A stretch of 62,862 nucleotides of DNA, counting the filler, from Globobulimina sp. (lineage: Eukaryota), in the NCBI GenBank assembly GCA_003354225.1. It is 34 parts of 34 records of this genome, joined end to end, with 100 filler letters (N's around TTAATTAATTAA, not from the genome) between each part and the next. Parts side by side here need not be neighbours in the genome. Positions count along the whole stretch, not along the records: positions 46,304 to 48,054 come from PIVH01012364.1; 33 more parts are not named here. One strand, 5' to 3'. Shown here one piece after another: positions 26,069 to 48,172 of this stretch. The notes under the pieces are model-generated. The model was not told where the DNA came from. It saw only the letters and a list, made by a program, of their open reading frames with translations, and did not search any database. Position 1 is the stretch's first letter; every line of letters begins with the position of its first letter. The position numbers and the translations under genes were made by a program.

Positions 26069-27262
26069 TCAAGTTTTTTTTTGTAATTTAACAACCTTTG
26101 CAGCAACCTCTGACAACGGTGTCATTTCGCCGCGCAAATTCCTTTCAAATAAGTGTTTTAACTCATTTCCTCGCAACCCCTGACCCATTAAAAACGATAA
26201 TTTGGTAACCACACTTTCCACAGTCATGTCATGCGCATTTATAAAGCCTATTTGTTCCAAATCCAATGCATTGTTCTGCTTTTTTTCTTCATCCTGCTGT
26301 TTGTTTGCATTTCTTTCATAAATATCAACATGTCCTTTAGAACACTGACTCATTAAAATAATCTCCTTTTTGAATTTCTTTTTTGCGATGGATAACAAAT
26401 TAAATAATTTGATAGATTGCGGGCCATATGACACTCCATAAAATGACAAAACAATTGCAATGTCAGCATCAGATTCAATCAAACCGCGCAATAATTCGCC
26501 ATTAAATCCCGGGATTAGCCAAATTACAATGATATTATTGAACAATTTCAAGTGTGTTTTGAATCTTTTTTTTGGCGCAGCAATAAAATATTCCTCTTCC
26601 ATTTCCAGCTCAATGCCAAAGATCCCCAATGGCGGGAAATTTGGCGACGTGAATGCATCCTGGTGCCAGGCATCGAATTTAGTCGACCTATTTCCTGTGC
26701 AGTTGCATGCAAAATCTATAGGTAGCATTTAGAGAGAAGTACCTCTCAACAATTTATTGTTAAACATTAAGCAGACTTCGCAGATTTGGCACTGGCCAGC
26801 AACGCACAGCGAAGCGATCAAATTGTTTTTCGCATCGTTGAAGACCTCACCGATTGGTATTTGCGCACCAGTTAAGACTACAGGTTTTGACAAATTTTCT
26901 AACATAAAGCTCAACGCCGAGGCGGTGTAACTCATTGTGTCGGTTCCATGCAATATTATGAATCCATCATAGTTGTAGTAATTTGTTGATATTTGCTCAC
27001 AAAGTTTGAGCCAATCGGAGGGCTGAATACATGACGAATCGATGGGGTTTTCCCATTCAAATATATCATAGGATGGCAATGCACCATGATGGAAATCAAT
27101 GTCATTCGACATTCTTTTGGATAAATATCCCTTTTGGACAATTAAACCGTTGGACGTCGGCGCCATTATAAAGGTGCCGCCTGTTACAATGATTAGTACC
27201 TTCGATTCGCAATCTTCCTCATATAGATTCGAGGCAAGTGTTTTGGATGGGGACGAGTCCAT
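26069..27262 (-). CDS. ansA: Type I (cytosolic) L-asparaginase, intron 26695-26742
   Basis: IVTGGTF, IDSS, ILHGTDTMSY, KPVVLTGAQIP, LLRG|NRSTK, FTSPN, DMTVES, NLRGEMT. Confidence 0.93.
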
Positions 27263-35777: not shown

Positions 35778-37607
35778 ATCATCACAATTTTTTCTTTTTC
35801 TGTTTTTTATTTATTGTGACAAACATAAACAGTTTGTTTTGTACAACAAAAACGATACAAACCTATTTTTATTTGACGATTGTATTATATTATGACAGTC
35901 GACTGGCGATGGGTGTGGATGCAATACATTGTTGTTAACAACGACTCCGACTGTATCTATAGCAATGTCATCATCATCACTCTCATCAAACTCACATCTA
36001 TCTGCTTGCAATAATTCATCCGATTTCGCATCTGAATCATCCATATCTTCATCAATATCAATCATAGCGGGCATTTCCATAGCTTTCTCATCAAACACGT
36101 CATTATTCTCCTCATCACCACATTCTGTTTCTGATGGGAGACGCGAGCCCCAAATATCATCCCAAGAAACATTATATTTCTCCTTATATACATAATAATC
36201 TTATTTATATATTAATGTATAACAAAGTCAAACATTGAGAAAAAAAAACAAATAGATTTGAATAACCTGGGATTCTATACTGCCAATTCACGACACTTGG
36301 CGGGAGGTCCGGCCTATAATTTTTGTTTATTATGTATGTTTGTTGTGTATGTTGGGTTTGCTGTGTCTGTTGACACACAATTCTATTTATTAATGAATTT
36401 CTGGATTGATAATCAACATTCGGATCAATTACAAATTGGAATATTGTGGTGTGGTTATGGTTATTGTTGTAGCTGTCAGAGGTGTTGTTTTTTACAGTTG
36501 ATGAAATGATAGAACTGTCTCGATTGTTGTGGCCACTGAACGACCGGGCAGACTCAATTCGAGACATCGTCCTTTCTTCTGGTTTAGAAGACATTATAAT
36601 TATTAGTAACAGTAATCTTCAGTTGAAAACGTTTTTGAAATGTGGAATTTTCTTTAAATGTGACTCATCAAACTGTATTGCATATAAAGATTGATTACAT
36701 GCGACTCATCAAGATTGATTACATTCTGTACTATCTATGAAAAACTAAGCATGATATTTTAATGTTTTTGCATTTGTACATATTTATTATTATTATTTAT
36801 TCTTGTTTACGTAAATTACGTTGTATACTCCGTTCCAGTTATTTGAATGAGATGGTATTAAGAAAATAATTTGATGACATTACACAATTCTTTTTATGAT
36901 AAATATCAATTACAGCGAATGAACCAACTATAACTATAACCAGTAACNNNNNNNNNNNNNNNNNNNNNNNNNNNNNNNNNNNNNNNNNNNNTTAATTAAT
37001 TAANNNNNNNNNNNNNNNNNNNNNNNNNNNNNNNNNNNNNNNNNNNNATACAAATAGGTCCATTGTATGGCAAAACCAATGACATTGGCGGGATATTAAT
37101 AATTTGCGTCAAGGAGCAGGGCGGTATTAAGGACATTGAAAAGAGACACCTGCAAAGGGAGGAGGAGGATGGCTACTCATTGAATTTCGAGAAAACAGTG
37201 ATAATTTCGATTGGCGAAAGTGATGATAATATGAGAAATATTGAATTGTTGCCGTATAATGATGGCATTGAACAGTTGCGAGTGCAGGATACGCCATTTT
37301 ATCTTTCATGCAAAGTTGAGTTTAAGTTTCCGAATTTTATGAATTTGCGATGAGTTTGTATATATATTCAGAAATGGAATAGAAATACAAAGAAAAGTGC
37401 AAAGAATCAGTTAGAGAGAGAACATCAGGAATTGATTGCACAGCAATTAGCAGAATTGCAAAGGGACGAAGAGGAGACAAAAAAAATGGAAGCCAATAAG
37501 GATAAAAAAAAGAAAAAGAAAAAACAAAAGTGTGATGATGAGAAAAGTGATAGACCATCTACTCAATATCAACATCGTCGCAATGGTATGTACTATATAC
37601 AATATCC

Positions 37608-38899: not shown

Positions 38900-40194
38900 T
38901 CATTTTTATTTTCCTTCTGTTCCTTGGATATCGCCATCGTTTTCATTAAATGTCCTATTTTATTTTTCATTATGTACTAAAGTGTTTGCCACAGAAATAT
39001 GAATTTGATGATCAAACCTATATCTTCCATATCTGCCAATCCATGCTCGTTAACATCATCATCGATATCGCTAATTTGAGTTGCACCATTCTTAAATTTC
39101 AGAGCTTTTTTGTTTTTTGGATATTTGTTGTCAATCAATGCTTTGCTAATATGTGGCAATAATTCGCTGCTCCATTCATTAAAAGCAGCCGTAACATCAC
39201 CGGAAGCATCGCCTAAACCCAATGCAAGCAATGGCAGAGCGCCTAATAACAACAAATTGTTATATAATGTTTTTGCCACAGTATTGTAATATTGCTCATA
39301 TACAGAATTACCAAAACCAAACACAGAGATTCGTACATTGCTCAAAAAAGCATCATGTATGCGACAATCAGAAGGTGCCTCACCTATCCATTTCATAAAA
39401 TATTCTGCATCATTGGGAGCACAGCCATTTGCATACGTGGATACTAGGAAAATTACAATACTTTCTTTCTCCAAATCTTCTGCATCAAACTCGCGCATAT
39501 TTTTAATTACAATGCGTCTGTTTGCATGGTTTAATCTCAATTTACTGTCAAGATTATTAGCAAACTGCTTGGCTGTGCCGGTCTGTGTGCCGTATAATAA
39601 TAAAATATCTTTACGCTCCCACTCAGTATTAATATTAACATTGTTATTGTCTGCCGGTACGCTCATATTTGCAAATTTAGTTTGTTTTTGCTTATTTGAT
39701 GCGTTTTGGTTTGAAGGTGGATACTTTTGAGGCTTCTAATCATTCATAAAATAAATAAAGAATTTTCGTTTTTGAAAAAACGTATTGAACCAAACTTTTT
39801 GAACATTATTTTGTGGATTTAGTGAGGTCGGCAATGCTAAAGCTTGTTTTTTTGTTTTTGACACTCTTAATTTGCCGATTAGGTAACTTTTGGATTTAAT
39901 CCTTGCGCTCTCCGAATGAATAGCTGCCTCAAATTCTTGCGTTGCGTCCTCGCCGGCGACTTCCAATAAAAAGCCACCACCGCCAGGGTGTAATGGTAAA
40001 AACGGCGTGACATCATACACCAAACCGTTTAACACAATCCATACCCCATTTGCTTTGCTATTATGTTTCGCTACATCTGGCATTGTGTATTGTGGCAAGG
40101 AATCTATATCAATTTCGGGATTTGTGTTTCCATTTTTTGCTGTCTTGTCATTTTGCTTCTGTGATGCTTCTGATGTACTGTTGTTGTTTCCCAT
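38900..40194 (-). CDS. Cytochrome b5-flavodoxin fusion, probably TYW1-like N-terminal half, intron 39736-39795, 3' partial
   Basis: VYDVTPFLPLHPGG...FEAAIHS; LYGTQTGTAK, LVSTYANG, VFGFGNSVY; phase-0 intron joins NVQK|KPQKYP in frame; DMEDIG linker. Confidence 0.8.
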
Positions 40195-46203: not shown

Positions 46204-46303
46204 NNNNNNNNNNNNNNNNNNNNNNNNNNNNNNNNNNNNNNNNNNNNTTAATTAATTAANNNNNNNNNNNNNNNNNNNNNNNNNNNNNNNNNNNNNNNNN
46301 NNN

Positions 46304-48054
46304 CATAGTCAAATCTGGAGCCTTTCTTCGAGATCTCGACCAATACGCCAGATTGCGTAATGTTTGAGCATTCAAATTGGAGAGACGGTAATGCAGCCAC
46401 TATTTATTAATATTTTAGCTGCACAGAATCAAAACTTTTCGTTTTATGCATACAAATAGACGGAGGTTTTATATGTAAATAACCGTAATACAATACCTTA
46501 ATATCAACAAAAAATAAAGATTCTATCTGTTGCTGTAAATCAGTCGCAAACTGTTTTTTATTTCTAAATTCAACATTTATTAAAAAATCGTTATGGGTCA
46601 ATACATCTTCCACATAAAATGTATTATAATTATCATCGACATCCAATGTGTAAACTTCTATGCCATCATTAACGCGATCACATATTGTATAATCTGTCAC
46701 TGTTATTTTTGTGTTGTCCGCACTAAATAATTCATCACCGATTTCCAACCGTTTGTGAGCAGCATATGGTTTAATACCTGCCCATCCTTTATTTTTTACA
46801 TAAAATGGATGTTGGAGGGTACATTGGATCAATTTGCCATTTGATAATAATATTTCAACGTATTCATAAACGATAAATGTATACAATTTTCTTACTGCAC
46901 AAACTATTTTATTTTCATCACACAATATCAGGTCGTTTCTTTTAATATTTTTTATTTTTTTATATGAACCGTCGCTGACTGATACTAAACATTCTGATAG
47001 GAAACAACCATTACGTCTGGAATTTGTTTGCTTTGCTTCAAGGTGAAAACCAAATATTTTCGCCAAATGTGATACATCTTCATCATATTTTTCAGCTCTT
47101 TTCGAAATGCTGCTCAATTCTTTTACTTTTTGCATTTTTTTAAAGTTTTCTTCATCAAACTGCTCTCCGTCTTTTTCGTCATTCTTCTGTTCATCGCCTT
47201 TTTCCTCTTCTTTCTAAGTTAAATATGGCAAAAATATGTATATAATGATTATTGCGAATTACATACCAATAAAAAGTCACTAAAACTAAAAAATAACACA
47301 TCATCAGATTGTATACTGTATGATGCCAATGATCTGTGAGCTGACAATATCTCGTTGTCTTTGCTTATTGTTAAAACTTCACGGTTAGTTTTATCAGTAA
47401 TAATTTTTAATATTGACTCAATTTTATCCATTGTATGTAATGCAATCGGTAACTCTTTCAATTTAATAATATTTTCATCCAAAATCAATTTCGGTTTCAT
47501 AATGATATTAATTCTATCATTTTCGTCATAAACTATTAATTCTAAAATTGACGAATTATTAATATTATAATCTTCTAATTGATAATCATTGATCAGCGCA
47601 TTCCCTTTAAATGAAAGGAACATCATTGACGTATCATATGTAATATTTTCGTATATTGTCGATAATACGACCTTCAACTCATAAATGTTTTTATTCGCTA
47701 AAATATCAATTTGTTTAATTCCATGAACAGAATTATTTGCAAATATTCTGATTAATTTTGGGAGGACATCGTTATTATTCATTTTCACATCATCCTCAAT
47801 ATTATCGCTATCATCCATCTATTAGGACATTATAATTATTATAGGAATTTGACAGATGATGGCGAAGAGTCAATATTAATATTACTAAACTTTCATATCA
47901 GGATTAGGGACATTCTGTAAATTGTAAAAAGATACTTGTTGTATTTCAGGGAGCTCGTTGTCATATTGTTTCGCTAACATTGAGACATATTCATCATTTA
48001 TTTCAAAATCAATATCATCGTCACCGTCATTTTTCGCTTCAATCGACGGTTTGT
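46304..48054 (-). CDS. Protein with two ubiquitin-like domains and a Hint domain; introns 47819-47890, 47214-47266 and probably one near 46400-46496; partial at both ends
   Basis: Ubl motifs FLSFKGNALINDYQLEDYNINNSSILELI and LSAHRSLASYSIQSDDVLFF; Hint 47006-46590 with G|CFLSECLV, TLQHPFYV, VYTLDV, FYVEDVLTHN; phase-0 introns keep the frame. Confidence 0.85.
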
Positions 48055-48172
48055 NNNNNNNNNNNNNNNNNNNNNNNNNNNNNNNNNNNNNNNNNNNNTT
48101 AATTAATTAANNNNNNNNNNNNNNNNNNNNNNNNNNNNNNNNNNNNNNNNNNNNACATCTATCGGAACTAAT

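Follow-up and report, generated by a model that had tools for sequence, protein, structure and literature searches.

The 62,862-base window analysed here, from the Globobulimina sp. assembly GCA_003354225.1, consists of 34 contigs of about 1751-1753 bp each, arranged in order of length, with 33 artificial N44-TTAATTAATTAA-N44 linkers between them (for example at 46204-46303 and 48055-48154). The subject of this study is the stretch 46304-48054, exactly one entire contig of 1751 bp, which carries on its minus strand part of an intron-containing gene. Its product is predicted to join two ubiquitin-like (Ubl) domains to a Hint domain of the bacterial intein-like (BIL) type, the combination found in the BIL-ubiquitin-like (BUBL) proteins; these are described for ciliates (Tetrahymena) in the accessible parts of the literature that we found. 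Since the window is a concatenation of unrelated contigs, adjacency within it has no genomic meaning, and the neighbourhood of the gene was unusable as evidence.

The gene model comprises three exons, all on the minus strand, as are the protein features given below. Exon 1 (47891-48054, coding from 48052) encodes an acidic stretch of 54 residues in a frame that is still open where the contig stops; the contig thus lacks the 5' end of the gene. It is followed by intron 1 (47819-47890), a GT...AG intron of 72 nucleotides in phase 0 with stops in every frame and a GC content of 0.26. Exon 2 (47267-47818) encodes 184 residues with the two Ubl domains, and intron 2 (47214-47266; 53 nucleotides, GTATGT...TTAG, phase 0, GC content 0.23) separates it from exon 3, which starts at 47213 and encodes a linker, the Hint domain and the start of the C-extein. 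In the original prediction, which was made from the sequence alone, separate open reading frames (ORFs) had been joined in frame through these two phase-0 GT-AG introns, and our model reproduced that arrangement to the base. The spliced product has 476 residues, and its 476 codons run over the three exons without stops or frameshifts. The acceptor of intron 2 is a candidate, as there are ten GT..AG pairs in phase 0 that would leave both ORFs uninterrupted and the junction falls within an unconserved linker; the splice sites of the window as a whole were too ambiguous for deriving a consensus. The standard code fits, since neither exon 2 nor exon 3 has a TAA or TAG in frame. A ciliate code, in which TAA and TAG specify Gln, was rejected on this ground and because the introns also contain TGA.

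That the exons belong to one gene is supported by an alignment with P0011, a protein of the foraminifer Bolivina argentea. When the spliced protein was compared with P0011, phmmer returned a single domain covering residues 10-456 of the query and 82-550 of the target (142.7 bits, E = 4.4e-45). This alignment spans both exon junctions, at residues 54 and 238, and together with the Pfam matches described below it supports the predicted order of acidic region, two Ubl domains, charged linker and Hint domain. We further mapped contigs of three runs (X1, X2 and X3) from one sample onto the region and took word depth from them. One X1 contig of 934 bases spans 46738-47671, including intron 2 and parts of both flanking exons, at even depth, and the DNA across intron 2 is therefore continuous. 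Another X1 record joins positions 47811 and 46638, separated by a single letter, at a depth of 6.9; it is not among the supported joints and is probably an artefact of the contig graph. We take the EukProt sets of Bolivina and Nonionella to be derived from Trinity transcriptome assemblies, and if this is right, the fused architecture is present in the spliced mRNA of a related organism. The sequence resource for B. argentea and Nonionella stella is given as Trinity transcriptome assemblies in the accessible part of its description (PMC8153729).

The Hint domain occupies 46590-47006 and has 139 residues, which leaves no room for a homing endonuclease insert, and none was found. It begins with Cys1 (codon 47004-47006) in the sequence CF.., carries the block B motif TLQH (46809-46820; T-x-x-H) and the block F motif VYTLDVDD (46632-46655), and ends in THN, with the terminal His-Asn at 46590-46595 and the Asn codon at 46590-46592. 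The next residue, Asp(+1) at 46587-46589, is the first of the C-extein. These positions confirmed each of the features claimed beforehand, namely Cys1 in RRNG|CF, TLQH, the terminal His-Asn, the lack of an endonuclease and Asp at +1. Exon 3 matched the Pfam family PT-HINT with 37.6 bits (cut-off 27.7; E = 3.2e-9). The closest PDB sequences to the Hint domain were the BIL domain of Clostridium thermocellum, 2lwy (6.7e-8), and the BIL2 domain of Tetrahymena BUBL1, 6tmm (4.2e-6) and 6y75 (4.2e-6 to 5.5e-6 over these entries), compared with 0.015-0.26 for PDB inteins. A family profile made from the window sequence and 29 relatives retrieved 6tmm at 1.5e-35 and 2lwy at 9.4e-34. Both BIL2 entries, 6TMM and 6Y75, are deposited under the name 'NAD(P)(+)--arginine ADP-ribosyltransferase'. 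In the alignment of the relatives, Gly(-1), Cys1, T..H and HN are kept, and columns C70, T132, H135, H207 and N208 (alignment A2) are nearly invariant. A-type BIL domains, according to the accessible text of PMC7765530 and PMC5874633, keep His-Asn, often have no nucleophile at +1 and cleave at the N- or C-terminus; the window Hint likewise ends in His-Asn without a +1 nucleophile (THN|D). By its PT-HINT score and its matches to 2lwy and 6tmm/6y75, the predicted Hint domain is of the BIL type, as had been proposed.

In the Pfam search, the AXH model (ataxin-1/HBP1) matched the block B region at 46770-46865 (exon 3 residues 128-159), and in the PDB search chains of the HBP1 AXH domain were found at 5e-4. 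The same model reached up to 175 bits on the tandem-Hint protein P0002. An AXH domain was rejected for the window gene because its 31.5 bits lie below the Pfam cut-off of 33 and the model cross-matches BIL-type Hints; the cross-match may be either an artefact of the model or a real relationship.

The 54 residues of exon 1 include 13 D/E and 4 K/R and matched no Pfam family. They contain an acidic motif that corresponds to the N-terminal motif 'YD..L.K.YD..LPE...FY' of P0011 (E = 6.3e-6) and of P0022 (9.2e-5), where it likewise lies upstream of the Ubl pair. Exon 2 matched Pfam ubiquitin PF00240 in two stretches with 28.6 bits (cut-off 25.4; E = 1.2e-6), and PDB polyubiquitin entries were matched as well. 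Ubl-a lies at about 47525-47758 and Ubl-b at about 47276-47515; against a local ubiquitin hidden Markov model (HMM) built from 37 ubiquitin domains of the relatives, they gave E = 1.9e-10 and 1.6e-5, respectively. The exon can be aligned with five Bolivina proteins (alignment A1); a word-index homology search with exon 2 in the 'longer' mode gave no matches. On these profile matches, both exon 2 domains are predicted to be homologues of the ubiquitin-family beta-grasp fold. Neither of them ends in Gly-Gly: Ubl-a ends in ..LIVYDEND, at the place of ..LVLRLRGG in ubiquitin, and runs directly into Ubl-b, which ends in ..FFSFSDFLL. As judged from these ends, the pair looks like polyubiquitin with erased cleavage sites, that is, a putative non-cleavable pair.

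Between the Ubl pair and the Hint domain lies a charged linker (47007-47213), the end of the N-extein, with 69 residues including 15 K/R, 18 D/E and no Pro, and ending in RRNG. The Ubl nearest to Cys1 ends 72 residues upstream and without di-Gly, which bears out the earlier claim that the Ubl domains lack this end and sit about 70 residues away from the Hint. The linker showed no similarity to the local ubiquitin HMM (E = 0.58), and its reading as a degenerate ubiquitin was thus unsupported. As for a leftover C-terminus of a preceding Hint, only low-confidence alignments to tandem Hints were obtained, and we do not claim it.

Downstream of the Hint domain, only 31 residues (46497-46589; DFLINVEF...FFVDIK) belong to the protein. 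They align with the Ubl-like segment that follows the first Hint of the relatives, HN|GF(I/M)(L/I)Y..., and form the start of the C-extein. Alone, this short piece gave E = 0.36 against the ubiquitin HMM, and its P0011 counterpart gave a weak 3.2e-4. The remainder of the contig, the tail at 46304-46496, is a high-copy repeat outside the protein: word depth is 1580-1966 below about 46500, as seen over 46304-46480, and about 8.6 over the gene body, a roughly 200-fold excess. Loose ends of the mapped contigs cluster at 46496-46504, and the repeat has other flanks in X2 and X3. One X1 contig carries other sequence below 46498, the first 30 letters of which continue the frame from ...VDIK into PNNDVNDVK, and this continuation fits the (V/I)KPxDxVxDIK found at the same place in P0022, P0011 and P0026. 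The tail has a GC content of 0.36 (0.44 in its last 100 nucleotides) and no notable repeat structure; it gave no Rfam match and has no copy elsewhere in the window. A further exon in the tail was rejected, as it has no similarity to the downstream parts of the relatives. The C-terminal region that had been regarded as unknown therefore did not stand as such, its first 31 residues being the start of a putative Ubl-like C-extein and the rest over-covered repeat. The tail may stem either from the assembler having joined sequences at the repeat or from insertion of the repeat, which would cut this copy short.

To define the family, we searched with exon 3 using phmmer, which found 1899 proteins at E <= 1e-3 and 138 at 1e-10, and we considered the best 150. 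Identity was at most 44% for all of these, with the nearest at 35-44%; the gene itself or a close copy was not among the 150 best of the 1899. Word-index searches with exon 3 returned one weak match in the 'near' mode and five tandem-Hint proteins in the 'longer' mode. Exons 1 and 2 were then compared with 155 proteins, that is, the 150 best and five found earlier. The Ubl pair of exon 2 matched upstream of the Hint in five of the 155 (P0048, P0011, P0022, P0026 and P0081; E = 1e-13 to 1e-7), all of them EukProt entries of B. argentea. Canonical ubiquitin stands beside the Hint in 19 of the best 150 Hint matches, often in an alternating Ub-Hint-Ub-Hint order. Ten of the 19 are named: six from B. 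argentea, three from N. stella and one from Reticulomyxa filosa (ETO18620.1, P0049), whose sole annotation is 'Ubiquitin family protein'. Metagenome or Logan proteins make up the remaining nine. The remaining top Hint matches are tandem-Hint proteins, of which the two with organism names come from archaeal metagenome-assembled genomes. Among Hint-related metagenome and viral loci, ubiquitin was encoded in none of 14, a result that is uninformative on BUBL. The Ubl-Hint architectures that the original prediction had suggested looking for elsewhere are thus present in Bolivina, Nonionella and Reticulomyxa, and its BIL/BUBL assignment proved right by the ubiquitin-Hint order of these relatives and by the matches to the BIL2 and BIL structures.

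The relatives together give a foraminiferal layout of acidic motif, two fixed Ubls, ubiquitin, putatively active Hint, Ubl, a Hint without Cys1 and TxxH, ubiquitin and an NAD:arginine ADP-ribosyltransferase (ART) domain. The ART domain (PF01129) is found at the C-terminus of P0026, P0009, P0033 and P0034, and in a two-sequence BLASTP comparison the N-terminus of P0026 showed a weak resemblance (E = 0.001) to the ART domain of the same protein. The second Hints of P0011 (residues 607-756) and P0026 (residues 584-742) lack Cys1 and have SIQQ or SASQ instead of T..H; they keep the terminal His-Asn directly before ubiquitin (WEIFVK or MQIFVK). From these residues, such a Hint looks like one that cuts only at its C-terminus. 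In P0007, P0036, P0077 and P0092 (Nonionella/Bolivina), an extra S or A stands between HN and MQIFVK, and in P0057 the extra residues are SG. Insertions of one or two residues (A, S or T) at polyubiquitin monomer junctions are noted for Rhizaria in the accessible part of PMC3014934; a connection between the two is pure speculation. By sequence, Ser(+1) in such relatives could in principle allow true splicing.

A tree was built from 18 Hint domains, with the partial rows P0048 and P0081 left out. The window Hint falls in a clade with P0026, P0011, P0022 and P0034 (support 98/95), where it is sister to the other four and not to P0026. Hence, either the ubiquitin before the Hint was lost twice or the tree does not resolve the branching order. 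From its alignment with the Bolivina protein and the related proteins of Nonionella and Reticulomyxa, we regard the window gene as a probable foraminiferal member of the BUBL kind; judged by these relatives, the organism is most likely a foraminifer.

The junction at Cys1 distinguishes the window gene within its family. Gly at -1 is kept (RRNG|C). Among the 285 Hint starts with Cys in the 150 best matches, Gly(-1) occurs in 108 and GG at -2/-1 in 67; NG at these positions is found in two, P0026 and one tandem-Hint protein. We also aligned the window Hint with 19 Hint segments that are linked to ubiquitin; they came from 16 of the 19 relatives in which ubiquitin is present. In this alignment Gly(-1) was found in 18 of the 19 relatives' segments, the exception being P0007a (..RGA|C), and GG at -2/-1 in 11. 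The usual junction is ..LRLRGG|CF.., with the variants RGA, KKG, RQG, TGG, AQG and AGG, and after HN the chain usually goes on with the opening strand of a further ubiquitin. Four Bolivina relatives, P0011, P0022, P0048 and P0081, share the acidic motif and/or the divergent Ubl pair with the window gene and carry a canonical ubiquitin ending in LRLRGG directly before Cys1. In the case of Bolivina P0026, a non-ubiquitin linker ending in RPNRNG stands before Cys1 and cannot be aligned with the window linker, so RNG|CF after a non-ubiquitin linker occurs in two species. Compared with its family, the window copy appears to have lost the canonical RGG-ending ubiquitin that normally lies directly before the Hint.

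Comparing the gene with known systems, P0026 (EukProt EP01084 P023310, 1323 residues) is alike in its Ubl pair, its non-ubiquitin RNG linker, its Cys1-Hint and a C-extein, putatively Ubl-like in the window, that starts with (G/D)F and a hydrophobic residue. Its Hint is 36% identical over 151 residues (E = 2e-24) and shares the tree clade of the window Hint. The two differ in that their linkers are mutually unalignable, P0026 has Gly(+1) where the window has Asp(+1), and P0026 is complete with its second Hint, ubiquitin and ART, whereas the window contig ends earlier. Bolivina P0011, P0022, P0048 and P0081, Nonionella P0007, P0036 and P0077, and Reticulomyxa P0049 are alike as foraminiferal ubiquitin-Hint(-ubiquitin) polyproteins. 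These relatives, in contrast to the window gene, have canonical ubiquitin ending in (L)RLRGG or a near variant directly before Cys1, and those of the Nonionella type have S or A and then MQIFVK after HN. The A-type BIL domain (C. thermocellum 2LWY; PT-HINT) shares the conserved His-Asn without a +1 nucleophile, and autocleavage at the N- or C-terminus would be expected from what is given on that type in the accessible sections of PMC7765530 and PMC5874633. BIL domains, however, lie in variable regions of prokaryotic proteins, often secreted or toxin proteins, while the window Hint lies in an intron-bearing eukaryotic gene between Ubl modules, the downstream one being putative.

In Tetrahymena BUBL1, the BIL2 domain is flanked by ubl4 and ubl5; through an isopeptide bond and without ATP, it attaches ubl4 to ubl5 and to other substrates, as stated in the accessible part of PMC8616854. 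It resembles the window Hint in being small and of the BIL type, with Cys1 (changed to Ala in the mutant that was crystallised), block B T..H, a penultimate His, Gly(-1) and no endonuclease, and it has Ubl modules on both sides, where the window has its Ubl pair upstream and, downstream, the 31-residue start of a putative Ubl-like module. The ART domain of the Tetrahymena BUBL1 locus has its counterpart in the window gene's relatives P0026, P0009, P0033 and P0034. Unlike its Tetrahymena counterpart, the window gene has RRNG instead of RGG, its Ubl pair is separated from the Hint by 69 residues of non-ubiquitin linker, it does not keep the zinc ligands of BIL2 by hand count, and it belongs to a foraminifer-like lineage (Rhizaria) with the standard code and spliceosomal introns.

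Taken together, we consider it probable (roughly 70%) that the contig represents the middle of a nuclear, intron-containing gene of the BUBL kind in which the Hint acts as a self-cutting joint of a polyprotein. The protein would read, in order, acidic motif, Ubl-a, Ubl-b, the 69-residue charged linker ending in RRNG, the Hint and the start of a further Ubl-like module. Cys1, with the Thr and His of block B, would perform an N-S acyl shift at the Gly(-1)-Cys1 bond, so that the whole N-terminal part would be held as a thioester through its C-terminal Gly. Since Asp(+1) provides no splicing nucleophile, transesterification and splicing are excluded, and the thioester would be resolved by water or by an amine. 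Resolution by water would release the acidic-Ubl-Ubl-linker fragment with a C-terminal Gly; resolution by an amine, giving isopeptide ligation, is the less probable alternative. Separately, the terminal Asn, together with the penultimate His, would cyclise to a succinimide and cut the Hint from the downstream module. This autoprocessing is inferred from the conserved residues and from the reports on Tetrahymena BIL2.

Several observations weigh against a working BUBL-kind gene of this sort. The RGG motif before the Hint is described as a hallmark of activation in BUBL (accessible part of PMC9200820), and no RGG-ending ubiquitin or Ubl abuts Cys1 in the window gene; RGG is replaced by RNG, and the end of the N-extein is not ubiquitin. 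The zinc ligands of Tetrahymena BIL2, H48 and H125 (accessible parts of PMC8616854 and PMC9200820), correspond to a gap and a Thr in the window by hand count on the PDB alignment, and the +1 residue is Asp where the closest relatives P0026, P0011, P0022 and P0034 have Gly. The gene is cut at both contig ends. As assembled, its ORF passes from ...VDIK straight into the high-copy repeat and ends after another 30 codons, and this copy could be disrupted by the repeat. Finally, no listed protein is more than 44% identical, which is too distant for a measure of constraint on this copy.

It is also conceivable, if unlikely, that the main function is conjugation, in which the RRNG-Gly thioester is passed to lysines of targets or of the downstream Ubl and the di-Ubl fragment serves as a large, self-activating modifier independent of E1/E2/E3, a possibility raised in the original prediction. 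The isopeptide conjugation reported for Tetrahymena BIL2 (accessible part of PMC8616854) provides the precedent, and, as ubl5 does there, a putative Ubl-like module follows the Hint. Gly(-1) and an Arg at -3/-4 are kept in both the window (RRNG) and P0026 (RPNRNG), and the rarity of NG at -2/-1, seen in only 2 of the 285 Cys Hint starts of the 150 best matches, points the same way. Against this, the end to be activated is not a ubiquitin tail and has no RGG, by the hand count the window gene has not kept the zinc site that is thus proposed in BIL2 to hold the acceptor lysine in place, and hydrolysis is the default fate of the thioester in BIL domains as described in the accessible part of PMC7765530. 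A bolder and decidedly doubtful form of the proposal is that the BUBL Hint of one foraminiferal lineage activates, in place of ubiquitin, a non-ubiquitin tail (...R-x-N-G); with no need of E1/E2/E3 or of di-Gly, a fragment of at least 300 residues with two uncleavable Ubl domains would then be transferred to targets or to the downstream Ubl. If true, this would amount to a self-conjugating protein tag of a new kind, and a new rule of junction recognition would lie behind the finding of RNG|CF in two species after unrelated linkers.

Returning to the self-cutting polyprotein, we asked how far the copy might instead be a decaying or disrupted BUBL paralogue that lost its canonical ubiquitin, received a repeat after ...VDIK and makes no working protein. 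We hold this to be improbable. The assembled ORF does meet a repeat of about 200-fold over-coverage and stops 30 codons on, the ubiquitin of four relatives is missing, and the nearest listed relatives are only 35-44% identical. On the other hand, the 476 codons of the three exons are intact with all catalytic residues kept, and a read contig continues the ORF beyond 46498 with a motif that is conserved in the relatives. The same ubiquitin-less RNG junction is moreover present in the 1323-residue P0026 of Bolivina.

An artefact of the gene model, with the Ubl and Hint exons coming from separate genes or with a chimeric joint inside the gene, is very improbable: the other end of the contig does show a chimeric or repeat joint and the odd X1 record links 47811 to 46638, but the alignment with P0011 is single and collinear across both junctions, five Bolivina proteins show the same order, and a single X1 contig (46738-47671) spans intron 2 at even depth. 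Least credible of all is a canonical mobile intein or a Hedgehog-type (Hog) domain in place of a BIL/BUBL Hint, since, for all the shared Hint superfamily, the thioester-forming Gly/Cys junction and weak matches to Hint/Hog PF01079 (22.7 bits, cut-off 29.7), Vint and Intein_splicing (14.7 bits, cut-off 35.8), all below the Pfam cut-offs, the window gene has no Cys/Ser/Thr at +1 and no endonuclease, its flanks are separate modules and not one host protein, PDB inteins are far behind the BIL domain (0.015-0.26 against 6.7e-8), and, unlike Hog, it has a terminal His-Asn with a Ubl-like segment next and no sterol-recognition region after the Hint.

As to its meaning, BUBL is, in the literature found, the only reported natural ubiquitin-type conjugation that uses protein-splicing chemistry instead of E1/E2/E3. 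Polyproteins of the BUBL kind exist in at least three foraminifera, where the layout is richer. Our literature search returned work on Tetrahymena and reviews and no description of a foraminiferal BUBL; the original papers on Tetrahymena BUBL/BIL2, reportedly those of Dassa et al. 2004 and Chiarini et al. 2021, may mention other lineages. Judged by its sequence, the window gene belongs to a foraminiferal BUBL branch for which we found no description in the literature, and within it to a sub-variant with the Hint after a putative non-ubiquitin tail. The gene is a natural experiment in that its Hint is intact while the preceding ubiquitin is gone, and it bears on whether the BUBL reaction depends on a ubiquitin tail. 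It could also provide a compact module for self-cleavage or self-ligation that follows a different junction rule. As a looser corollary of the bolder proposal above, BUBL-ART polyproteins may be common to ciliates and foraminifera and ancestral to both.

The rest of the window, whose GC content is 33.6% overall, contains fragments of other genes. A RhoGEF-FYVE fragment and a MYND-finger fragment flank the gene in the window and are not its genomic neighbours. In several contigs, long halves of an ORF in the same frame are split by a single stop codon, at 26729-26731, 35811-35813 and 39736-39738 on the minus strand and at 37351-37353 on the plus strand; examples include the N- and C-terminal halves of an asparaginase as well as Cyt-b5 and flavodoxin ORFs, among others. 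The sequence around 26729 resembles a GT..AG intron of 27 nucleotides, and very short introns seem more likely than an altered stop codon as the origin of these splits.

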